From Frankiales bacterium (GTDB lineage: Bacteria; Actinomycetota; Actinomycetes; Mycobacteriales; SCTD01), in assembly GCA_025966295.1 (NCBI GenBank), contig JAOPVD010000012.1, forward strand, positions 1-38,510: a DNA stretch of 38,510 bases. Reading direction: 5' to 3'. Below, one piece after another: positions 16,376 through 26,438 of this stretch. The notes beneath the pieces were generated by a model. The model was given only the letters and a program-made list of their open reading frames with translations. It ran no database searches and was not told the DNA's origin. How positions within the stretch are numbered: the first letter of the stretch is position 1; each line of letters starts with the position of its first letter. Position numbers and translations under genes: made by a program.

Positions 16376-17660
16376 GGCCGAGCGCCAGGGCGTCGGCGTA
16401 GCGGAGCCGCGCCGCGTCCGTCATCGTCGGCAGGTGGTAGGGCGGGAACAGGCCCTCGTCGGGCTCGTAGGCCCGCAGCAGGAACTGCGCGAGGTTGACC
16501 TTGTGCACCTCGGTCGCGCCGTCGGCGAGGCCCATGTGGAACGACTCCATCACCCACTTGCCGAACGGCAGCTCCTTGGAGATGCCGAGCGAGCCGTGGA
16601 TCTGGATGGCGCGGCCGGCCACGTCGAGCAGCACCTTCGGCATGCCCGCCTTGACCGCGGAGATGTCGGCGCGCACGAGGCGGTAGTCGTTGTAGCGGTC
16701 GATCTTCCACGCGGTGCGCAGCACCAGGAGCCGGAACTGCTCGATCTGCAGCCAGCTGTCGGCGACCATCTCCTGCACCAGCTGCTTGCGCGCCAGCGGC
16801 TCACCCTTCGTGGAGCGGGACACGGCGCGACGGCAGATCAGGTCGAAGGCGTGCTGCACGAGGCCGACGGTACGCATGGCGTGGTGGATGCGGCCGCCGC
16901 CGAGGCGCGTCTGCGCGACGGCGAAGCCGGCGCCGCGCTCACCGAGCAGGTGGTCGGCCGGGATCCGGCAGTCCTCGTAGCGGATGTAGGCGTGCGTGCC
17001 CTCCGCCTCGTCATGACCGTGCACGCCGACGTTGCGGACGATGTTGACACCCGGCGTGTCCGCCGGCACCACGAACATCGACATGCTGGAGTGCTTCGGC
17101 GCGTCGGGGTCGGTCACCGCCATGACGATGAGGAACGACGCGAAGCCGGCGTGGGACGAGAACCACTTCTCGCCGTTGATGACCCACTCGTCGCCGTCGA
17201 GGACCGCCGTGGTGCGGAACCCCGTCGGGTCGGATCCGCCGTGCGGCTCCGTCATCGAGAACGACGACACGATCTCGTTCTCCAACAGCGGCTCGAGGTA
17301 CTGCTTCTTGAGGGCGTCGGTGCCGTAGTGGGCGAGGATCTCGGCGTTGCCGGAGTCCGGCGCCTGACAGCCGAACACGACCGGGCCCGAGTGCGTGCGG
17401 CCGAGCCGCTCGTTGAGCAGCGCGAGCTTGAGCTGGCCGTACCCGAGGCCGCCCAGCTCGGGGCCGAGGTGGGCGCCCCACAGCTTGCGCTCACGCACCT
17501 GGGCCTGGAGCGGCTTGATCAGCGCGTTGCGGACCGGGTCACGCACGTCCCAGGCATGCTCGATGACGAGGTCGACCGGCTCGATCTCGTTGGTGACGAA
17601 CTCGTCGACCCAGTCGAGCTCCTGCTGGAAGTCGGGGTCGGTCTCGAAGTCCCATCCCAT
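16368..17660 (-). CDS. Acyl-CoA dehydrogenase family protein with Asp at the canonical catalytic-Glu position (ACAD10/11/LvaC-like)
   Basis: 430 aa; the ATG is preceded by GAGGAG. The ACAD fold motifs are SSFSMTEPHGGSDP and WVINGEKWF. The C-terminal motif reads GLADGATEVHKVNLA where typical ACADs have xYEGTxEIQ. Confidence 0.9.
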   Translation of the reverse strand: MGWDFETDPDFQQELDWVDEFVTNEIEPVDLVIEHAWDVRDPVRNALIKPLQAQVRERKLWGAHLGPELGGLGYGQLKLALLNERLGRTHSGPVVFGCQAPDSGNAEILAHYGTDALKKQYLEPLLENEIVSSFSMTEPHGGSDPTGFRTTAVLDGDEWVINGEKWFSSHAGFASFLIVMAVTDPDAPKHSSMSMFVVPADTPGVNIVRNVGVHGHDEAEGTHAYIRYEDCRIPADHLLGERGAGFAVAQTRLGGGRIHHAMRTVGLVQHAFDLICRRAVSRSTKGEPLARKQLVQEMVADSWLQIEQFRLLVLRTAWKIDRYNDYRLVRADISAVKAGMPKVLLDVAGRAIQIHGSLGISKELPFGKWVMESFHMGLADGATEVHKVNLAQFLLRAYEPDEGLFPPYHLPTMTDAARLRYADALALGRG

Positions 17661-17730
17661 TGCGCCTGCTCCTCGCTGTGACGTCGGCCGTGGCCGTCCG
17701 TTCCCTGTCGTTCTGGAAGATGGACGCGCG

Positions 17731-18873
17731 CTAGCGCGTCAGGATCGTGCAGGCGCTGATGCCGGGCGCGCCGTAGACGTGCGTGAAGGCCACCTGGGGA
17801 GACCCGGGCACCTGCCTGTTGCCAGCGTCGCCCCGCAGCTGGAGTGCGTTCTCGTAGACCTGGCGCAGACCGGACGCGCCGATCGGCTCGCCGTTGGCGA
17901 TGCAACCGCCGTCGGTGTTGATCGGCAGGCTTCCGCCGATCTCGGTGGCGCCGGACCGGATGAGCCCCTCCTGCTCGCCGTGCTTGCACAGGCCCGTCTC
18001 GGCCATGTGCATGAGCTCCGCGCCGGCCTCGGTGTCCTGCACCTGGGCGACGTCGACGTCCTGCGGGCTGACGCCGGCCAGCTCGAACACGGCTTGCGAG
18101 GCCTCGACGGTCGGGCTGTCCCCCCGCTCCGGCGACAGCCAGGGACTGAAGACCTCGAACGAGCCGAAGCGCCGCGACCGGAAGCTGACGCCCTTCAGCA
18201 CCACGGCGCGGTCGGTGTAGGCGCGGGCCTTGTCAGCGCGGCAGAGCACGAGCGCGACGGCCCCTTCCCCGGGGGAGCAGTACATGTACTGCGTCAGCGG
18301 GTGGCTCACCATCGTTGAGCTCGCGATGTCCTGCTCGCTGATGGCTGTCCGCCGCCAGGCGTTGGGGTTGAGCGCGCCGTTGCGGAACGACTTCGCGGCG
18401 ATGGTCGACAGGATCGCCGGGTCGAGGTCGTGGTCGTGCAGGTACCGCTGCGCCTTCAAGCCGAAGAACTGGGTGGTGAGCATCAGGCCGGTCTCGCCGT
18501 ACCAGGCGCCGAGCCCCATCGACTCGGGGTCGGCGTTGAAGGGGCCGCGCGGGTGCTTGTCGAAGCCAATGACCATGCCGAGGTCGGACGCACCCGACTG
18601 GATGCTCGCCACGGCGCTGATCAGCGCGCTGCCGCCGGTGGCGCAGCCGTTCCAGACGTTCAGGAACGGCAGGCCGGTCTGACCGAGGTCGGCGACGAGG
18701 GTGTCGGCGTCACCGCCGTCGCGGCTGCCGCCGACGGCGAACTGCATGTCCGACCAGTCGAGCGAGCAGTCGCGCAGCGCCTCCCGCACGGCGTGCAGGG
18801 CCTGCTGGCGGCCGGACACCCCGTCGGTACGACCGAAGGGGTGGATGCCGATGCCGATGATGGCGACGTCCAT
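17731..18873 (-). CDS. SCP2/Ltp-type thiolase-like protein
   Basis: 380 aa; the ATG is preceded by GGGAGG. NVWNGCATGGSALISAV carries the nucleophile Cys, and the C-terminal GGSLPINTDGG is typical of the family. Confidence 0.9.
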   Translation of the reverse strand: MDVAIIGIGIHPFGRTDGVSGRQQALHAVREALRDCSLDWSDMQFAVGGSRDGGDADTLVADLGQTGLPFLNVWNGCATGGSALISAVASIQSGASDLGMVIGFDKHPRGPFNADPESMGLGAWYGETGLMLTTQFFGLKAQRYLHDHDLDPAILSTIAAKSFRNGALNPNAWRRTAISEQDIASSTMVSHPLTQYMYCSPGEGAVALVLCRADKARAYTDRAVVLKGVSFRSRRFGSFEVFSPWLSPERGDSPTVEASQAVFELAGVSPQDVDVAQVQDTEAGAELMHMAETGLCKHGEQEGLIRSGATEIGGSLPINTDGGCIANGEPIGASGLRQVYENALQLRGDAGNRQVPGSPQVAFTHVYGAPGISACTILTR

Positions 18874-18886
18874 GCGGGCCTCCCTC

Positions 18887-19309
18887 TCAGTCCGTGCTCG
18901 GGGCGGTGGGGGCGAAGGCGAAGGTGACGACGTCGGTGCCCTCGGAGTCGGTGCGGAACGGCTCGAGGACCAGCTCGACCGGCGCGCCGATGCGCAGCTT
19001 CTCCGGGTCGCTCTCCGTCAGCCGCGCCTCGACGAGGACCGCGCCGAGGTCGACGTAGCCGACGCCGTACGGCGTGAACTCCTCCGGACCTTGGTACGGC
19101 GGCTTCGGCCGGAAGGCCTGGACCGTGAAGGACCACAGGGTGCCGGTGCGCGGGAGCTCGCAGGGCTGCATGTCCACGCGGGTGCACCGCGGGCAGCCGT
19201 CCTGCTGCGGGAAGGTCGTGGTGCCGCAAGAGCGGCAGGCGCTGCCGATCAGGTGCGGGACGCCGTCGCGCTCAGCGAACAGGCCGGGAGCGACCGCCCG
19301 GGACGTCAC
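18887..19309 (-). CDS. DUF35 OB-fold / zinc-ribbon protein (thiolase partner)
   Basis: 140 aa with the rubredoxin-like CRSCGTTTFPQQDGCPRC followed by an OB-fold region. There is a GTGA overlap with the upstream stop. Confidence 0.85.
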   Translation of the reverse strand: MTSRAVAPGLFAERDGVPHLIGSACRSCGTTTFPQQDGCPRCTRVDMQPCELPRTGTLWSFTVQAFRPKPPYQGPEEFTPYGVGYVDLGAVLVEARLTESDPEKLRIGAPVELVLEPFRTDSEGTDVVTFAFAPTAPSTD

Positions 19310-20508
19310 GTCCCCACCTCGGCGTGGCCCGCGCCGGCCAGGACCTGGGCGGTGTGCTGGCCGAGTCGGGGCGCGGCCGTCGGGCCCGGAGGTGTGAAGG
19401 TGCTGAAGCGGTAGGGACTCCCGGGCTGGAGGGCGGTGCTGCCGTCGGGCTGCTCGACCGGTGTGAAGAAGCCGCGCGCCTGCAGGTGCTCGTCGCCGAA
19501 CAGGTCCTCGGGGGCGTTGGTGATGCCGATCGGCAGACCGCGGCGCTGCCCCTCGTGGTAGAGGAACTCAGCGTCGTGCACGAGGAAAAAGACCTCGACG
19601 AGCTCCTGCACGTGGCTGAAGTTCCGCTGTCGGTGGGCGAGGTCACTGAAGGCCGGGTCGACCAGGTCGGCGGCCAGGCCGGCGCTGTCCATCCAGTCGA
19701 CGAGGGCCTGCCAGGGCTTCTGGTCGGCGAGGATGAGCGCGAAGTAGAGGAACCGGTCGTCGGCGCTGCGGAACAACGCCGGCTGCGTCGGTGACGGTTG
19801 CGCGTGCCGGGCCGTCTGCCGCTGCACCTTGACCCGCGGGTAGAACCAGAACGGGTTGGCCAGCTCACCGCTGACCGCGAGGCTGTCGTGCATGGAGACG
19901 TCCACCAGCTGGCCCCTGCCGGTGCGGCTGCGCTCGAGCAGCGCGAGCAGCAGGCCGGTGTGGGCGAAGCTCGCCGCGGTGAGGTAGCCCTGGTCGCCGC
20001 CGGGACGGATCGGCGGGATCTCGTGGTCGTCGTAGCCGCAGCTCAGCAACGGCCCCCCGGCGGCGAGTCCGATCAGGTCGCTGGAGCGGTAGTGGGCCCA
20101 CGGACCGTCCTGGCCGAACGGCGTGACCGCCAGCACGACGAGCCGGGGACTCAGCTCCCGCAGCTGTGCGAAGTCCAGACCCCGGGCGGTCGCGTCGCCT
20201 GAGCGGCCGGTGGTCAGCAGGACGTCGGCGTCCAGCACCAGCTGCCGCAGCTGCTCGCGGTCCTGCTCGCTGTCCGAGAGCACGACGCTCTTCTTGGTCG
20301 AGTTGTAGGCGCGGAACGCCAGGCTCGCCTCCGGACCGGTTTGGCCCTCGGCGAAGGGGCCGACCCCGCGGCTCGCGGCGCCCTCCGGCGGCTCCACCTT
20401 GACCACGTCGGCGCCGAGGTCGGCGAGCAGCTTGCCGGTGTACTCGCCGGCCGGGTCCTCGGCCAGCTCGACCACGCGCAGGCCGGTGTACGGCGTCGTC
20501 AGGCTCAT
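19306..20508 (-). CDS. Family III (CaiB/BaiF) CoA-transferase, Asp-retaining paralog
   Basis: The real start is ATG at 20508 (MSLTTPYTGLRVVEL..), an ATGA overlap. The listed 849-aa ORF fuses it to artefact sequence. It contains GKLLADLGADVVKVE, and the catalytic Asp is present in PFGQDGPWAHYRSSDLIGLAAGG. Confidence 0.9.
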   Translation of the reverse strand: MSLTTPYTGLRVVELAEDPAGEYTGKLLADLGADVVKVEPPEGAASRGVGPFAEGQTGPEASLAFRAYNSTKKSVVLSDSEQDREQLRQLVLDADVLLTTGRSGDATARGLDFAQLRELSPRLVVLAVTPFGQDGPWAHYRSSDLIGLAAGGPLLSCGYDDHEIPPIRPGGDQGYLTAASFAHTGLLLALLERSRTGRGQLVDVSMHDSLAVSGELANPFWFYPRVKVQRQTARHAQPSPTQPALFRSADDRFLYFALILADQKPWQALVDWMDSAGLAADLVDPAFSDLAHRQRNFSHVQELVEVFFLVHDAEFLYHEGQRRGLPIGITNAPEDLFGDEHLQARGFFTPVEQPDGSTALQPGSPYRFSTFTPPGPTAAPRLGQHTAQVLAGAGHAEVGT

Positions 20509-21803
20509 CAGATGATCCCCTCGGCGGCCAGCTCGGCCACCTCGTCGTCGGACAGGCCGAGGACCTCGGTGAAGACGTGGTGGTTGTCCTCGCCGAGCAG
20601 CGGTGCGGAGCGCCAGTTGTCCTGCTGCATGTCGGAGAACAGCACCGGGCTGCCCTCGAAGCGGGCCGGACCGATCACCGGGTGGTCCATCTCGAAGAAC
20701 GTCCCGCGGTGAGCGATCTGCGGGTCGGTCTCGGCCAGGTCCTCGGCATCCTGCACGGCGGCGGCGGCGACACCGGCGCCCTGCAGCAGGTGCATCACCT
20801 CGTGCGGCGTGCGGGTGCGCGTCCAGTCGGACAGGTGCTTGTCGAGCTCGTCCTGGAGCGCGTGTCGCGCGGCCTGCGTGCCGAAGCGCGGGTCGTCGGC
20901 CCACGACGGGTTGCCCAGCGCCCCGACGAGCCGGGCCCAATCGTCGTCGTTGAAAACGGCGACGGCCACCCAGCGGTCGGGCTCCGAGCACGGGTAGACG
21001 CCGTGCGGGGCCGCGAGCGGGTTCTCGAGCCGGTTGCCCGTCGGGAAGCCCGGCCGCCGGGTCGGGCGGTCGTTGACCGCGACGTCCATGAGGATCGGGC
21101 CAAGCAGGTTGATGCCGACCTCGACGGCCGACACGTCGATCTCGGTGCCCTTGCCGGTCACCCCGCGGTGCAGGATCGCCATGAGCAGCGCGGCCGAGTT
21201 GTAGTAGGCCGCCTGGTTGTCCATGTGGGACAAGCCCCAGCCCGACGGCTCGCGGTCCGGCAGGCCGCTGACGAACGTCATCCCGCTGACCGCCTGGATG
21301 ACGGGGCCGTAGCTCCGGTAGCCGACGTGCGGGCCGGTGTGCCCGTAGCCGCTCATCCGCGCGTAGACCACCTCGGGCGACAGCTCCTGCAGGCGCTCGT
21401 ACGTCAGGCCCCAGCGCTCCATGACGCCCGGCGCGAAGTTCTCCGTCACCACCGAGCTGGCCGCGATGAGCTGGTCGGCGAGCTCGCGCCCCCGCGACGT
21501 GCGCATGTTGATCGTGACGCCGAGCTTGTTGCGGCTGTAGTTGTTGAACAGGCCGCCCTTGTCGGGGTCCGGGTTCGGGTCTTCGTCGCCGTACGTCCGC
21601 GGGTCGTCCTTGTAGAGAGGCAGGCGGCGCGGCATGTCGAGCCGGGTCCGGTCCTCGATCTTGATGACGTCGGCCCCGAAGTCGGCCAGCATGCGCGTCG
21701 CAACGGCGCCGACCCCCATCCAGCAGAAGTCGGCGACCCGCACCCCGGCCAACGGGCCCGTGCGCGGACGTGGCCTGCGGTCCGTCGACGCCGTGGGCTG
21801 CAC
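20508..21803 (-). CDS. Family III (CaiB/BaiF) CoA-transferase paralog lacking the catalytic Asp
   Basis: It contains RMLADFGADVIKIED and GYGHTGPHVGYRSYGPVIQAVSG, with Gly where the catalytic Asp aligns. I prefer the GTG at 21803 because AAGGAGGA lies just upstream. Alternative starts are ATG at 21869 and the start at 21884. Confidence 0.85.
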   Translation of the reverse strand: MQPTASTDRRPRPRTGPLAGVRVADFCWMGVGAVATRMLADFGADVIKIEDRTRLDMPRRLPLYKDDPRTYGDEDPNPDPDKGGLFNNYSRNKLGVTINMRTSRGRELADQLIAASSVVTENFAPGVMERWGLTYERLQELSPEVVYARMSGYGHTGPHVGYRSYGPVIQAVSGMTFVSGLPDREPSGWGLSHMDNQAAYYNSAALLMAILHRGVTGKGTEIDVSAVEVGINLLGPILMDVAVNDRPTRRPGFPTGNRLENPLAAPHGVYPCSEPDRWVAVAVFNDDDWARLVGALGNPSWADDPRFGTQAARHALQDELDKHLSDWTRTRTPHEVMHLLQGAGVAAAAVQDAEDLAETDPQIAHRGTFFEMDHPVIGPARFEGSPVLFSDMQQDNWRSAPLLGEDNHHVFTEVLGLSDDEVAELAAEGII

Positions 21804-21855
21804 GTCGTCCTCCTTCGTCGATGTCGCGGGCGAGAACCTCAGCGCCGCAGGGCAC

Positions 21856-21884
21856 ACGCTATTCCTCATGATGTATTTCGGCAA
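21856..21884 (-). promoter_or_regulatory. Candidate sigma-A-type promoter (-35 TTGCCG, 17-nt spacer, -10 TAGCGT) with palindromic motif copy C in the spacer
   Basis: The minus strand reads TTGCCG-aaatacatcatgaggaa-TAGCGT. Copy C (TCCTCATGATGT on the plus strand, 21863-21874) lies entirely within the spacer, about 55 nt upstream of the GTG at 21803. Confidence 0.4.
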
Positions 21885-21941
21885 GGCTTTTCGTGACCCA
21901 GGTCACTTCGTTGGTCGGGCGCTCGTGCGGCACGCCGCCGC

Positions 21942-22175
21942 TCAGCCCTCCTGCAGCCCCAGCGCCCGTTCCGGGCAGGTCTGTACGCCGAGCCGCGCCT
22001 GTCGCCGGAGCTCGTCGGTCGCCGGCACGACCTCGTCGACGAGCTCGACGAAGCCCTCGTCATCCGGGGCGAACACGCCGGGTGCCAGGCTGTAGCAGCG
22101 GCCGTGACCGACGCAGGCCTCACGGTCGACCAGGACGCGCAGCGTGGCGTTCTCGCCGCCCGGGACCGCGCTCAC
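21942..22175 (-). CDS. Small [3Fe-4S]-type ferredoxin (P450 partner type)
   Basis: The real start is GTG at 22175, which overlaps the P450 stop (GTGA). 77 aa, with CVGHGRCYSLAP ... CPERA (C-x2-H-x2-C ... CP). Confidence 0.8.
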   Translation of the reverse strand: MSAVPGGENATLRVLVDREACVGHGRCYSLAPGVFAPDDEGFVELVDEVVPATDELRRQARLGVQTCPERALGLQEG

Positions 22176-23422
22176 CGGACCACCGAGGCGGTGTCCCAGA
22201 CCAGCGGCAGCTTGCTCAGCCCGAGCTGCGGGCCGCTCTCGACGATCTCGTCCGGCCCGACCGACGGGTCCAGTCGGTAGTGCGGGATGCGCTTGTGCCA
22301 CTCCTGGAGCGCCACGGTGAGCTCGAGGCGAGCCAGGTGGGAGCCGAGGCAGCGGTGCGGTCCGCTGCCGAACGAGAAGTGCGTGACGGCCTCGCGGTCG
22401 AAGTCGACCTTCTCAGCGTGCTCGAACTCGAGCGTGTCACGGGACGCCGCGGCCAAGGTCAGCATGACCATGTCGCCCTTCTTCATGGGGCAGCCGTGGA
22501 AGTCCATGTCCTCCTCCACGCGCCGGCCGTCCATGACGATGGCGAAGGCGCGCAGCAGCTCCTCGACCGCAGCCGGCGCGATCGAGGGGTCGTCGATGAT
22601 CCGCTGCCGGTCGTCGTCGTGTGTGGCCAGGTGGTAGAAGGCGTAGCCGAGCTGGCTCTTGACCGTGTCGAGCCCGGCCAGGATCAGCACGAGCGACATG
22701 TTCAGGAACTCCTCGTCGGTGATCGGCCGGTCGCCGATGTTCGACGTTGCGAGGCGGCCGAAGAAGTCGTCCCGCGGGTTCGCGCCGAGCTCTGCCAGCA
22801 GAGCGGTGAAGTACGCCCGGATCTCGGCGAACGCCCGCTGCAGCAGCTCGACCCCCTCGGGGTTGCCAAGGCCGGCGAAGGCGTCCTCGACCCAGGCCAC
22901 GAACTTGTCGGTGTCCTCGGTGGGGAGCTCGACGATCTGCAGGAAGACCTTGGTCGGGAAGACCATGGCGAAGTCGGTCACGAGGTCGACCGAGCCCTTG
23001 TCCATGAGCGACTCGATGAGCTCGACGCAGTCTCGTCGGATGGAGGGCTCGAGCCCTGCGACGACCTTCGGGGAAAACTGCGGGTTGAGCACAGAGCGGT
23101 AGAGCCGGTGGTTCGGCGGGTTCTCCATCGTCGGGATGAAGTGGTAGTCGGGCTCGGGGATGGTCGGCACCGTGGCCGAGCTGCTGAACAGCTGCGGGTT
23201 CTGGAACGCCTCCTGGACCAGGGCGTTGCGGTTGAGCATCCAGAAACCACCGCCGAAGGTGTTCCAGGCGATCGGCGACTTCTCCCGCATCTCGTCCAGG
23301 ACCGTGAAGTACTCCGTGGCCGGGCGCGGCTGGGTGAAGTCGAAGTCGACGACCGGGCAGCCCGCCGCCGTAACCTCCTCGGTGCGGCTCAAGGGAGTGG
23401 CCTCCTCGTGCGTAGCAGTCAC
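22172..23422 (-). CDS. Cytochrome P450, CYP101 (P450cam)-like
   Basis: Heme loop FSFGSGPHRCLGSHLA, ExxR (VEELLR) and I-helix ILAGLDTV. The stretch YHFIPTMENPPNHRLYRSVLNPQFSPKVV...CVELIESL closely parallels P450cam [29 protein letters not shown]...CSLIESL. I prefer the GTG at 23422 (preceded by GGAGAGG). The alternative is ATG at 23449. Confidence 0.9.
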   Translation of the reverse strand: MTATHEEATPLSRTEEVTAAGCPVVDFDFTQPRPATEYFTVLDEMREKSPIAWNTFGGGFWMLNRNALVQEAFQNPQLFSSSATVPTIPEPDYHFIPTMENPPNHRLYRSVLNPQFSPKVVAGLEPSIRRDCVELIESLMDKGSVDLVTDFAMVFPTKVFLQIVELPTEDTDKFVAWVEDAFAGLGNPEGVELLQRAFAEIRAYFTALLAELGANPRDDFFGRLATSNIGDRPITDEEFLNMSLVLILAGLDTVKSQLGYAFYHLATHDDDRQRIIDDPSIAPAAVEELLRAFAIVMDGRRVEEDMDFHGCPMKKGDMVMLTLAAASRDTLEFEHAEKVDFDREAVTHFSFGSGPHRCLGSHLARLELTVALQEWHKRIPHYRLDPSVGPDEIVESGPQLGLSKLPLVWDTASVVR

Positions 23423-24852: not shown

Positions 24853-25260
24853 TCAGCTGCGGGCCAGCCGCCACTGCGGGACGACCGTCCCGTCGACGTC
24901 CTCGAACCAGGCGATGACCGGCGCGCCCGCGCGCAGCTCCGGCCGGCCTGGCAGGTGCCCCACAAGCCGCGTGCCGGGCAGGTCGTCGAGCTCGACGAGC
25001 AGCACGGTGTACGGGGCCGGGAAGGCCGGGTGGACCGCGTGCTCGACCACCGACCACGAGTACACGGTGCCGGTGGGCGTCACCGGTTCCCAGCGCCCCT
25101 CCCAGCTGCCACAGGCGCGGCAGTACGCGCGTGGCACGTGCAGGACGGCGTCGCAGCCGTTGCAGCGGCGCAGGGCCAGCTCGCCGCGGGCGGCGGCCTC
25201 GAAGAAACCGCCCGTGTCGACGTCGTCGGTGACCGGCAGCAGCCGGGGCGTGCCGGTCAC
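24853..25260 (-). CDS. DUF35 OB-fold / zinc-ribbon protein (second copy)
   Basis: 135 aa with CNGCDAVLHVPRAYCRAC followed by an OB-fold region. There is a GTGA overlap with the thiolase-like stop. Confidence 0.85.
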   Translation of the reverse strand: MTGTPRLLPVTDDVDTGGFFEAAARGELALRRCNGCDAVLHVPRAYCRACGSWEGRWEPVTPTGTVYSWSVVEHAVHPAFPAPYTVLLVELDDLPGTRLVGHLPGRPELRAGAPVIAWFEDVDGTVVPQWRLARS

Positions 25261-26438
25261 CGGTCAGCCACGAGGATGAGGCCGCTGCCGGGGGGCAGCG
25301 GGGTGGCGGTGACGAGACAGGTCTCGGCGCCGGGGACCTGCGAGGTCGAGCTTCCGCGGATCTGCCGGACGCCCTCGAGGACGTGGTTCATGCCGTGCAC
25401 GTAGCCCTCCGACAGGTGGCCGCCGCCGGTGTTGATGGGCAGCGACCCGCCGAGCCCGATCGCACCGCTCGCCGCGAACGCGCCCCCCTCGCCCTTCTCG
25501 CAGAAGCCCCAGTCCTCGAGCTGCATCAACACGGTGATCGTGAAGCAGTCGTAGAGCTGAGCGACGTCGATGTCCTCGGGGCCCAAGCCGGCCCGCTCGT
25601 ACAGGACCTTCGACACGGCCGTCGCCGGGAGGGAGGTGATGGACTCGCGGAACAGCGTCGGGAACTGGATGCCCGGCTGCGGGTCGGCCGTGCTGGCCTG
25701 GGCGACCGCGCGGATGACCGCCGGCGGCTGACGCAGGTCCCTGGCCCGTTCGACGGTCGTGACCACCACGGCACAGGCCCCGTCGGTCTCCAGGCAGAAG
25801 TCGAACAGCCGAAGCGGGTCGGCGATGAGGCGGGCGCCCAGATAGTCGTCCATCGACAGCGTCTTGGCGTGCATCTGCGCCGCCGGGTTGTCGTTCGCCC
25901 GCGCGCGGCACGTCGTAGCGATGGCGCCCAGCTGCTCCTCGGTCGTGCCGAACTCGAGCATGTGCCGACGGGCCATGAGAGCGAAGATCTGACCGGGAGT
26001 GACGAGGCCGTACGGCGCGAAGAGCTCGTCATAGCTGCCTGCTCCGCCGACCCGCTGCTCGGACAGGGCGCTCTGCCCGAAGCGGCGCCCCGAGCGGCCG
26101 TTCAGGCCGCGGAAGACCAGGACGGTCGTCGCCTGGCCGGACAGGATTGCCGCGACGGCCTGGGCCACCATCCCCGGCGGGGCGACGCCACCCGGACCGA
26201 CCTCGGACCAGTACGTCAGCTGCGGGATCCCCAGCACGTCAACGAGGTCGTTGTGCCGCACGTTGTCCATGTCGCAGCGCACGATCCCGTCGACGTCCTG
26301 CGCCGTCAGGCCCGCGTCCTCCAGGGCCGCGAGGGCCGCCTGGGCGACGAGGGTCAGCTCGCTGCGCCCCGACGCCCGGGAGAAGTCGGTCGTCCCGATG
26401 CCCGCGATCGCGCAGCGGTCCCGGTGGGAGGTCGCCAT
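25257..26438 (-). CDS. Thiolase-like protein lacking the nucleophilic Cys (Ltp2/aldolase-like)
   Basis: 393 aa. The N-terminus is AIAGIGTTDFSR and the C-terminus is GGSLPINTGGGHLSEGYVHGMNHVLE. The nucleophile region reads EVGPGGVAPPG (no Cys), and a YDCF motif is present. Confidence 0.9.
   Translation of the reverse strand: MATSHRDRCAIAGIGTTDFSRASGRSELTLVAQAALAALEDAGLTAQDVDGIVRCDMDNVRHNDLVDVLGIPQLTYWSEVGPGGVAPPGMVAQAVAAILSGQATTVLVFRGLNGRSGRRFGQSALSEQRVGGAGSYDELFAPYGLVTPGQIFALMARRHMLEFGTTEEQLGAIATTCRARANDNPAAQMHAKTLSMDDYLGARLIADPLRLFDFCLETDGACAVVVTTVERARDLRQPPAVIRAVAQASTADPQPGIQFPTLFRESITSLPATAVSKVLYERAGLGPEDIDVAQLYDCFTITVLMQLEDWGFCEKGEGGAFAASGAIGLGGSLPINTGGGHLSEGYVHGMNHVLEGVRQIRGSSTSQVPGAETCLVTATPLPPGSGLILVADR

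Follow-up and report, generated by a model that had tools for sequence, protein, structure and literature searches.

Two adjacent genes for family III coenzyme A (CoA)-transferases lie on the minus strand of contig JAOPVD010000012.1 of a Frankiales bacterium (assembly GCA_025966295.1), and the whole of this stretch, 38,510 nucleotides (nt), is referred to here as the window. The two genes resemble those for the subunits of BbsEF, the benzylsuccinate CoA-transferase, and are called F-type (upstream) and E-type (downstream) accordingly. The analysis presented here concerns which of the two encoded proteins carries the catalytic aspartate, whether the two form one enzyme, and what surrounds them. 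The features of the gene pair are as follows.

20508..21803, minus strand: upstream F-type gene, encoding the BbsF-like, nucleophile-bearing subunit of 431 amino acids; matches PF02515 and chain B of structure 9fn0.
19306..20508, minus strand: downstream E-type gene, encoding the BbsE-like subunit of 400 amino acids, without the nucleophile Asp; matches PF02515 and chain A of 9fn0.
21809..21816, minus strand: Shine-Dalgarno-like element GAAGGAGG, read from the sequence, 5 nt ahead of the GTG start of the upstream gene (21803).
20506..20510, minus strand: junction TGATG, with one base common to both genes (stop codon 20510-20508, ATG 20508-20506).
21219..21221, minus strand: codon for Asp195 of the upstream gene, aligned with Asp169, the nucleophile, of Frc and CaiB.
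21306..21311, minus strand: codons for Tyr165-Gly166 of the upstream gene, in the column of Frc Tyr139-Glu140.
19984..19986, minus strand: codon for Tyr175 of the downstream gene, which occupies the nucleophile column.
20077..20082, minus strand: codons for Ser143-Asp144 of the downstream gene, in the column of Frc Tyr139-Glu140.

Both proteins matched the Pfam profile CoA_transf_3 (PF02515) over its full length and above the gathering cut-off of 23.3 bits, the upstream protein at 1.4e-103 (347 bits, profile positions 1-366) and the downstream protein at 9.7e-71 (239 bits, profile positions 2-366). An earlier note on this DNA, made from the letters of the window, had described the genes as two adjacent family III CoA-transferase paralogs and this description held, as did the two peptides quoted in it, which were found in the proteins exactly as given. 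The 4-nt ATGA overlap that it had placed at 20508 was not found, the actual junction being the TGATG listed above. Identity between the upstream and downstream proteins by BLASTP was only 26%, and the duplication from which they arose is therefore old.

The products of E. coli frc (yfdW), caiB and yfdE, taken from the annotated MG1655 record, were aligned using MAFFT with both window proteins, 80 F-type orthologues (63-84% identical to the upstream protein) and 73 E-type orthologues (48-79% identical to the downstream protein). According to the literature, Asp169 acts as the nucleophile of CaiB, and Frc and YfdW show strict conservation of the catalytic Asp (PMC9196870). In the alignment the native Asp169 of Frc and Asp169 of CaiB fell within one common column, and this column was occupied by Asp195 in the upstream protein (within S-H-M-D-N-Q) and by Tyr175 in the downstream protein (within G-D-Q-G-Y). 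The pairing of Asp195 with Tyr175 was reproduced by BLASTP of the two paralogues. An Asp in this column, as would be expected of a competent family III transferase, is thus present in the upstream protein and absent from the downstream protein.

The earlier note had reached the opposite assignment by way of a different position. It held that the segment following G-x-G-x-x-GP carries the Asp which forms the acyl-aspartyl anhydride, but the (Y/H)-D position of that segment aligned with Frc Tyr139-Glu140, and the nucleophile column lies approximately 29 residues beyond it. At the (Y/H)-D position the upstream protein has Tyr165-Gly166 and the downstream protein has Ser143-Asp144, while among the single-subunit enzymes the Glu140 column contains Glu in Frc, Asp in YfdE and Asn in CaiB. 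The alignment against Frc and CaiB which the note had itself proposed as a check therefore found another Asp of the upstream paralog, Asp195, in the catalytic position. Its claim that one of the two paralogs is without the catalytic Asp was upheld, but the paralog which it named, the upstream one, was the wrong one. As judged from the alignment, the asymmetry is real but reversed, with the upstream subunit keeping the nucleophile and the downstream subunit being without it.

The composition of the relevant columns in the two sets of orthologues (80 F-type and 73 E-type sequences) was as follows.

Frc Asp169 column: F-type, Asp 80; E-type, Tyr 47, Phe 18, Ala 2, Met 2, Ser 2, His 1.
Three residues ahead of the Asp169 column: F-type, Ser 80; E-type, Asn 51, Asp 20, Gly 2.
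Frc Tyr139 column: F-type, Tyr 77, Phe 3; E-type, Ser 68, Cys 3, Gly 1, Thr 1.
Frc Glu140 column: F-type, Gly 79, Arg 1; E-type, Asp 61, Glu 8, Asn 4.

In the F-type orthologues Asp195 sits within the motif [Y/H]-M-D-N, and it was invariant in a 36-row F-type alignment, while in the 73 E-type orthologues no conserved acid was found within 4 residues of the nucleophile column. The same division was observed for the E-N-F-x-P-G loop, in which E, N, F, P and G were each present in 79-80 of the 80 F-type orthologues, with variable residues at these positions in the E-type orthologues. By these comparisons the downstream subunit has lost, in addition to the nucleophile, two more conserved active-site elements (Tyr139 and the ENFxPG loop), and the upstream subunit has the appearance of an ordinary transferase. 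Mean column identity, when measured in the same 36 genomes, was 76% for the F-type and 63% for the E-type proteins, and this stronger constraint on the F-type fits a single working site on the upstream subunit.

With respect to solved structures, the best relative of the upstream protein was chain B of 9fn0, benzylsuccinate CoA-transferase (3.3e-68, with chain A at 2.6e-22), and the best relative of the downstream protein was chain A of the same entry (7.2e-51, with chain B at 3e-32). The printed alignments placed an Asp of chain B opposite Asp195 and a Gly opposite Gly166, whereas chain A had a Tyr opposite Tyr175 and an Asp opposite Asp144. As the chains of 9fn0 repeat the asymmetry, it belongs to the BbsEF type in general rather than to the window alone. 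The two marks of that type, unlike subunits which match different chains of 9fn0 and a nucleophile Asp in one type only, were both found in the window pair, and one close homologue of the upstream protein carries the JGI label 'BbsF subunit'.

The downstream protein was also searched against 1.84 billion representative proteins and the best 150 matches were analyzed. Among these, 117 were two-domain proteins of approximately 800 amino acids, and in 102 of the 117 the N-terminal half was without the Asp and the C-terminal half had it; all 33 of the single-domain relatives were without it. When the domains were scored by profile, the Asp was absent from 143 of 148 E-type domains and kept in 110 of 119 F-type domains. 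A Gly at the Glu140 column, as found in the upstream protein, is typical of the Asp-bearing subunit or half, with Gly or Ala present in 97 of 115 such halves.

Pairing of the two genes was surveyed in 80 related genome loci from Actinomycetota and Alphaproteobacteria, a locus being informative where the sequence downstream of the F-type gene was present. The E-type gene followed the F-type gene directly and on the same strand in 79 of 79 informative loci; the remaining locus, L050, falls outside this number since it stops at the end of its contig. In 70 of 73 junctions the F-type and E-type genes were -4 to +4 nt apart, and the TGATG of the window recurred in 33 of the 73. An apparent lack of the E-type gene in L037, L041, L067 and L080 was rejected, the gene being present there but broken into 2-3 matches by frame changes or assembly errors; these split genes may be pseudogenes or assembly errors. 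In L037 and L041 (Nocardioides alcanivorans) the F-E pair was observed twice on one contig, in inverted orientation. An apparent F-E fusion in L051 (11230-11330), in which the reading frame changes close to the 3' end of the F-type gene to give one frame of 846 codons, was likewise rejected, because the TGA-ATG junction remains in the DNA, and the frame change is probably an error in the assembly of this metagenome-assembled genome (MAG).

A fold model of the pair, built from its own 36-row alignments, gave an interface score (ipSAE) of 0.97 compared with 0.01 for the best control; in a benchmark, the mark applied to this score was passed by 58 of 80 solved complexes and by 2 of 110 mismatched pairs. 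The runs agreed in at least 97% of contacts, with a predicted local distance difference test (pLDDT) value of 92 for the partner and approximately 520 contacts, and residues 195-197 of the F-type subunit were located within the interface. Of the residues invariant in the E-type proteins, E215, L216, N218, P219, F222, Y223 and the stretch R230-Q-T-x-R-H-A-Q-P238 were all in the modelled interface. The invariant Y-D-D-H (159-162) and R-Q-T-x-R-H-A-Q-P (230-238) motifs were observed in or beside it. Of the complex predictions suggested in the earlier note, the hetero pair was the only combination folded, and its score supports a heterodimer. As interlocked dimers of family III have already been solved, this result shows likeness to such dimers, a possible source of the score, and is not proof of binding.

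We consider it probable that the pair makes up a family III CoA-transferase of the BbsEF type, with two subunits that differ from each other, produced by coupled genes and assembled as an interlocked heterodimer with one working site, on the upstream subunit. The two genes would be translated as a coupled pair, giving an interlocked heterodimer, perhaps in an alpha2-beta2 arrangement as in BbsEF. The single working large-domain site would be that of the upstream subunit, with Asp195, Tyr165 and the ENFxPG loop. Asp195 would attack the donor acyl-CoA to give a mixed anhydride, the acceptor acid would displace the donor acid, and the returning CoA-S- would form the new thioester; this anhydride scheme is the established mechanism of family III and is carried over to the window pair here. 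The large-domain site of the downstream subunit would be degenerate, because a Tyr occupies the nucleophile position and Tyr139 and the ENFxPG loop are lost, and this subunit would provide the other half of the interlocked dimer, with its small domain and linker (the invariant R-Q-T-x-R-H-A-Q-P) possibly capping the one working site. By analogy, the transferase would probably activate a carboxylic acid with an acyl-CoA that is released later in the same pathway, candidates for the acid being substituted dicarboxylates and 4-hydroxy acids. The obligate heterodimer of one catalytic and one non-catalytic subunit envisaged in the earlier note fits all of the evidence, once the roles of the two subunits are exchanged.

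A number of points weigh against this explanation. The hetero pair alone was folded, so the model cannot tell a heterodimer from two homodimers, and both the association of the subunits and the choice of active site are predictions only. The E-type protein keeps a Y-D-D-H motif (159-162), invariant in 36 orthologues, together with an N69/K72 motif, and an acidic residue was present at the Glu140 column in 69 of the 73 E-type orthologues; the E-type subunit may therefore have a pocket of its own which serves in ligand binding or specificity, beyond a role as scaffold. In NCBIfam no equivalog reached cut-off for either subunit. Which site is active in BbsEF itself is read from sequence only, and no publication that describes the 9fn0 structure, or that says which of the Bbs subunits has the Asp, came up in a literature search.

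Of the alternatives, the one which survives best, although we consider it unlikely, is that there is no heteromer and that each protein forms separate homodimers, the upstream protein as an ordinary transferase and the downstream protein as something other than a transferase, for instance a binding protein, an isomerase or a racemase. Members of family III are mostly homodimers, and the fold test made no comparison of homodimer and heterodimer. Against this, the two genes were direct neighbors with coupled junctions in all 79 informative loci, 117 of the best 150 relatives are E-F fusions in one chain, and the two proteins have as their nearest solved relatives the two chains of a single entry. 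A racemase, which the earlier note had offered as an alternative role, is not supported. The catalytic residues of alpha-methylacyl-CoA racemase (MCR), His126 and Asp156, which we take to occupy columns 139 and 169 of Frc (the alignments to 1x74 were not printed by residue), would correspond to Tyr and Asp in the upstream protein and to Ser and Tyr in the downstream protein, and neither therefore has the His and Asp combination.

Less likely again is an enzyme in which both subunits are catalytic at two different sites, the downstream subunit making use of a displaced acid, either Asp172 or Asp160/Asp161. The downstream protein of the window does have Asp172 three residues ahead of Tyr175, and Asp160 and Asp161 were invariant in 36 orthologues. 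However, the acid at the position of Asp172 is not conserved, Asn being found there in 51 orthologues as compared with Asp in 20 and Gly in 2, and Asp160/Asp161 belong to a loop, upstream of the nucleophile, in which Frc and YfdE also bear an Asp, and are probably off the thioester site, although the alignment is gapped in this region and its register uncertain. The loss of Tyr139 and of the ENFxPG loop from the downstream protein also speaks against a second working site. The assignment made in the earlier note, with the downstream protein catalytic through Asp144 and the upstream protein, which has Gly166, acting as scaffold, is highly improbable: Asp144 does occupy the (Y/H)-D position where the upstream protein has Gly, and this position is acidic in many single-subunit enzymes (Glu in Frc, Asp in YfdE), but its column is that of Frc Glu140 and not of the nucleophile Asp169 (PMC9196870), CaiB, an active transferase, has Asn in this column, as do 4 of the 73 E-type orthologues, and the real nucleophile and canonical motifs are kept upstream, not downstream.

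The transferase pair heads a four-gene run on the minus strand, which is completed by the following two genes.

18887..19309, minus strand: DUF35 gene (zinc ribbon and OB fold; PF01796, PF12172), the GTG start of which overlaps the stop of the E-type gene by GTGA.
17731..18873, minus strand: thiolase-like gene with Pfam thiolase domains, 13 nt past the DUF35 gene.

The DUF35 gene product gave a weak match to the NCBIfam BbsA model (4e-14, below cut-off), and the best solved relative of the thiolase-like product was BbsB, the benzoylsuccinyl-CoA thiolase subunit (7pxp_C, 1.1e-43). The run thus places genes for a DUF35 protein resembling BbsA and a thiolase resembling BbsB behind the transferase pair, and the remark in the earlier note that a DUF35/thiolase pair follows the transferases directly, as in bbs clusters, was confirmed. 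A promoter and terminator scan of positions 17500-22400 found no signal. G+C content in the window was 70-74%.

Upstream of the pair, also on the minus strand, are genes for an amidohydrolase_2 protein, an SDR protein, an Ltp2-like thiolase-fold protein (best solved match 6ok1_A, 7.5e-91), a second DUF35 protein, an acyl-CoA dehydrogenase, a P450 and a ferredoxin. Downstream of the pair are genes for an acyl-CoA dehydrogenase, an APH-type kinase, a small protein, CoA ligases and an enoyl-CoA hydratase. The MAG to which the window belongs measures 3.08 Mb at 88% completeness, and four further family III CoA-transferase matches were observed in it, on contigs C267, C43, C369 and C301. The closest related locus is that of a Marmoricola MAG, with an F-type protein 84% identical to that of the window. 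Recurring neighbors of the pair were counted over the related loci, with the following results.

Ltp2-like protein: 54 loci.
SDR: 48 loci.
GntR/FCD regulator: 44 loci.
Acyl-CoA dehydrogenase: 37 loci.
CoA ligase: 31 loci.
APH-type kinase: 30 loci.
Luciferase-like monooxygenase: 29 loci.
DUF35 partner of the Ltp2-like protein: 28 loci.
BbsB-like thiolase: 24 loci.

Examples of the recurring GntR/FCD, luciferase-like and SDR genes are found at L071:1792-2634, L032:17467-18372 and L067:15725-16498; near the window pair, none of these recurring versions was found. The Ltp2-like and DUF35 genes were observed directly after the E-type gene in the majority of relatives (e.g. L010:12458-14060). In the window they are located at 24853-26438 on the minus strand, approximately 3 kb upstream of the pair and 4.3 kb from the E-type gene, with the acyl-CoA dehydrogenase, P450 and ferredoxin genes in between, and the slot after the E-type gene is taken by the BbsAB-like pair. 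The order F-type, E-type, Ltp2-like and DUF35 was the same in L009, L013, L017, L018, L022, L028, L058, L072, L076-L078 and others. F-type proteins of Actinomycetota were 66-71% identical to those of Caulobacterales/Sphingomonadales (Phenylobacterium, Caulobacter, Sphingomonas and Novosphingobium), and the module was approximately 70% identical between these groups. This suggests that the whole module has moved between phyla.

The cluster is an uncharacterised, mostly aerobic route resembling beta-oxidation, and no paper was found on this gene cluster in Rhodococcus. We suggest, tentatively, that the pair heads a conserved aerobic catabolic module, which may be an oxygen-dependent counterpart of bbs for another class of substrate. 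The proposed parts of this module are the F/E transferase, the Ltp2-like aldolase with its DUF35 partner, the BbsAB-like DUF35/thiolase pair and the acyl-CoA dehydrogenase with the APH-type kinase, in addition to a CoA ligase, an SDR, the GntR/FCD regulator and the luciferase-like monooxygenase. If this is correct, the conserved pocket of the Asp-less subunit would set the substrate specificity or regiospecificity.

For the annotation of such pairs, use of the (Y/H)-D motif will lead to the wrong subunit being called dead. Judged by the nucleophile column, the BbsF-like subunit would be the catalytic one in the window, in the orthologues, in the chains of 9fn0 and in most of the fused forms. 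While the enzyme layout itself is not new, conservation of this pair in coupled form extends over two phyla, within a catabolic island. The pair offers enzymology a well-defined object of study in relatives that can be cultured (Rhodococcus, Nocardioides, Gordonia, Thermomonospora and Phenylobacterium), and its interest lies mainly in the pathway which surrounds it.

Among known systems the closest is BbsEF, the succinyl-CoA:(R)-benzylsuccinate CoA-transferase (9fn0, 9fol, 9fun), which also consists of two old paralogous family III subunits and whose loci also resemble the window in having DUF35 and BbsB-like thiolase genes beside the transferase. The gene order differs, however, in that bbsE precedes bbsF, whereas the window has the F-type gene followed by the E-type gene. 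The neighboring genes in the window also differ, comprising an Ltp2-type aldolase pair, a kinase and acyl-CoA dehydrogenase module and CoA ligases, without BbsCD or BbsH, and the host is represented by a high-G+C actinobacterial MAG of aerobic type which carries P450 genes, unlike the setting of BbsEF. BbsEF is linked to a fumarate-adding glycyl-radical enzyme; a PFL-like enzyme of this kind was found neither in the window nor in the genome, which is 88% complete. Since this enzyme was not found in the genome and no NCBIfam equivalog fitted, the substrate is almost certainly not benzylsuccinate.

The homodimeric enzymes Frc/YfdW, CaiB, YfdE and SUGCT share the fold and the Pfam family, and the upstream protein keeps the residues corresponding to their Asp169, Tyr139 and ENFxPG. 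Frc/CaiB-type homodimers have two identical sites per dimer, whereas in the window pair one subunit is without the nucleophile. MCR (1x74) belongs to the same family with a weaker match (1.3e-20 for the upstream and 2.1e-18 for the downstream protein). A search of the literature on PhtSa/PhtSb and Rv1866 found nothing usable. Proteins of the PtmU4 type have two family III modules in one chain, the C-terminal one with a conserved Asp; 2,401 homologues have been counted, and mutation of Asp430 of PtmU4 to probe its function is reported (PMC6006322). The fused layout of PtmU4 and DddD is that of the fused relatives described above, in which the N-terminal half is most often Asp-less and the C-terminal half Asp-bearing (102 of 117), whereas in the window the modules are separate coupled genes, F-type then E-type. 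The reaction of PtmU4 is a sulfur transfer and DddD has lyase activity as well, and nothing in the window cluster suggests either chemistry. These comparisons indicate that the layout of the enzyme is already known and is very widespread.

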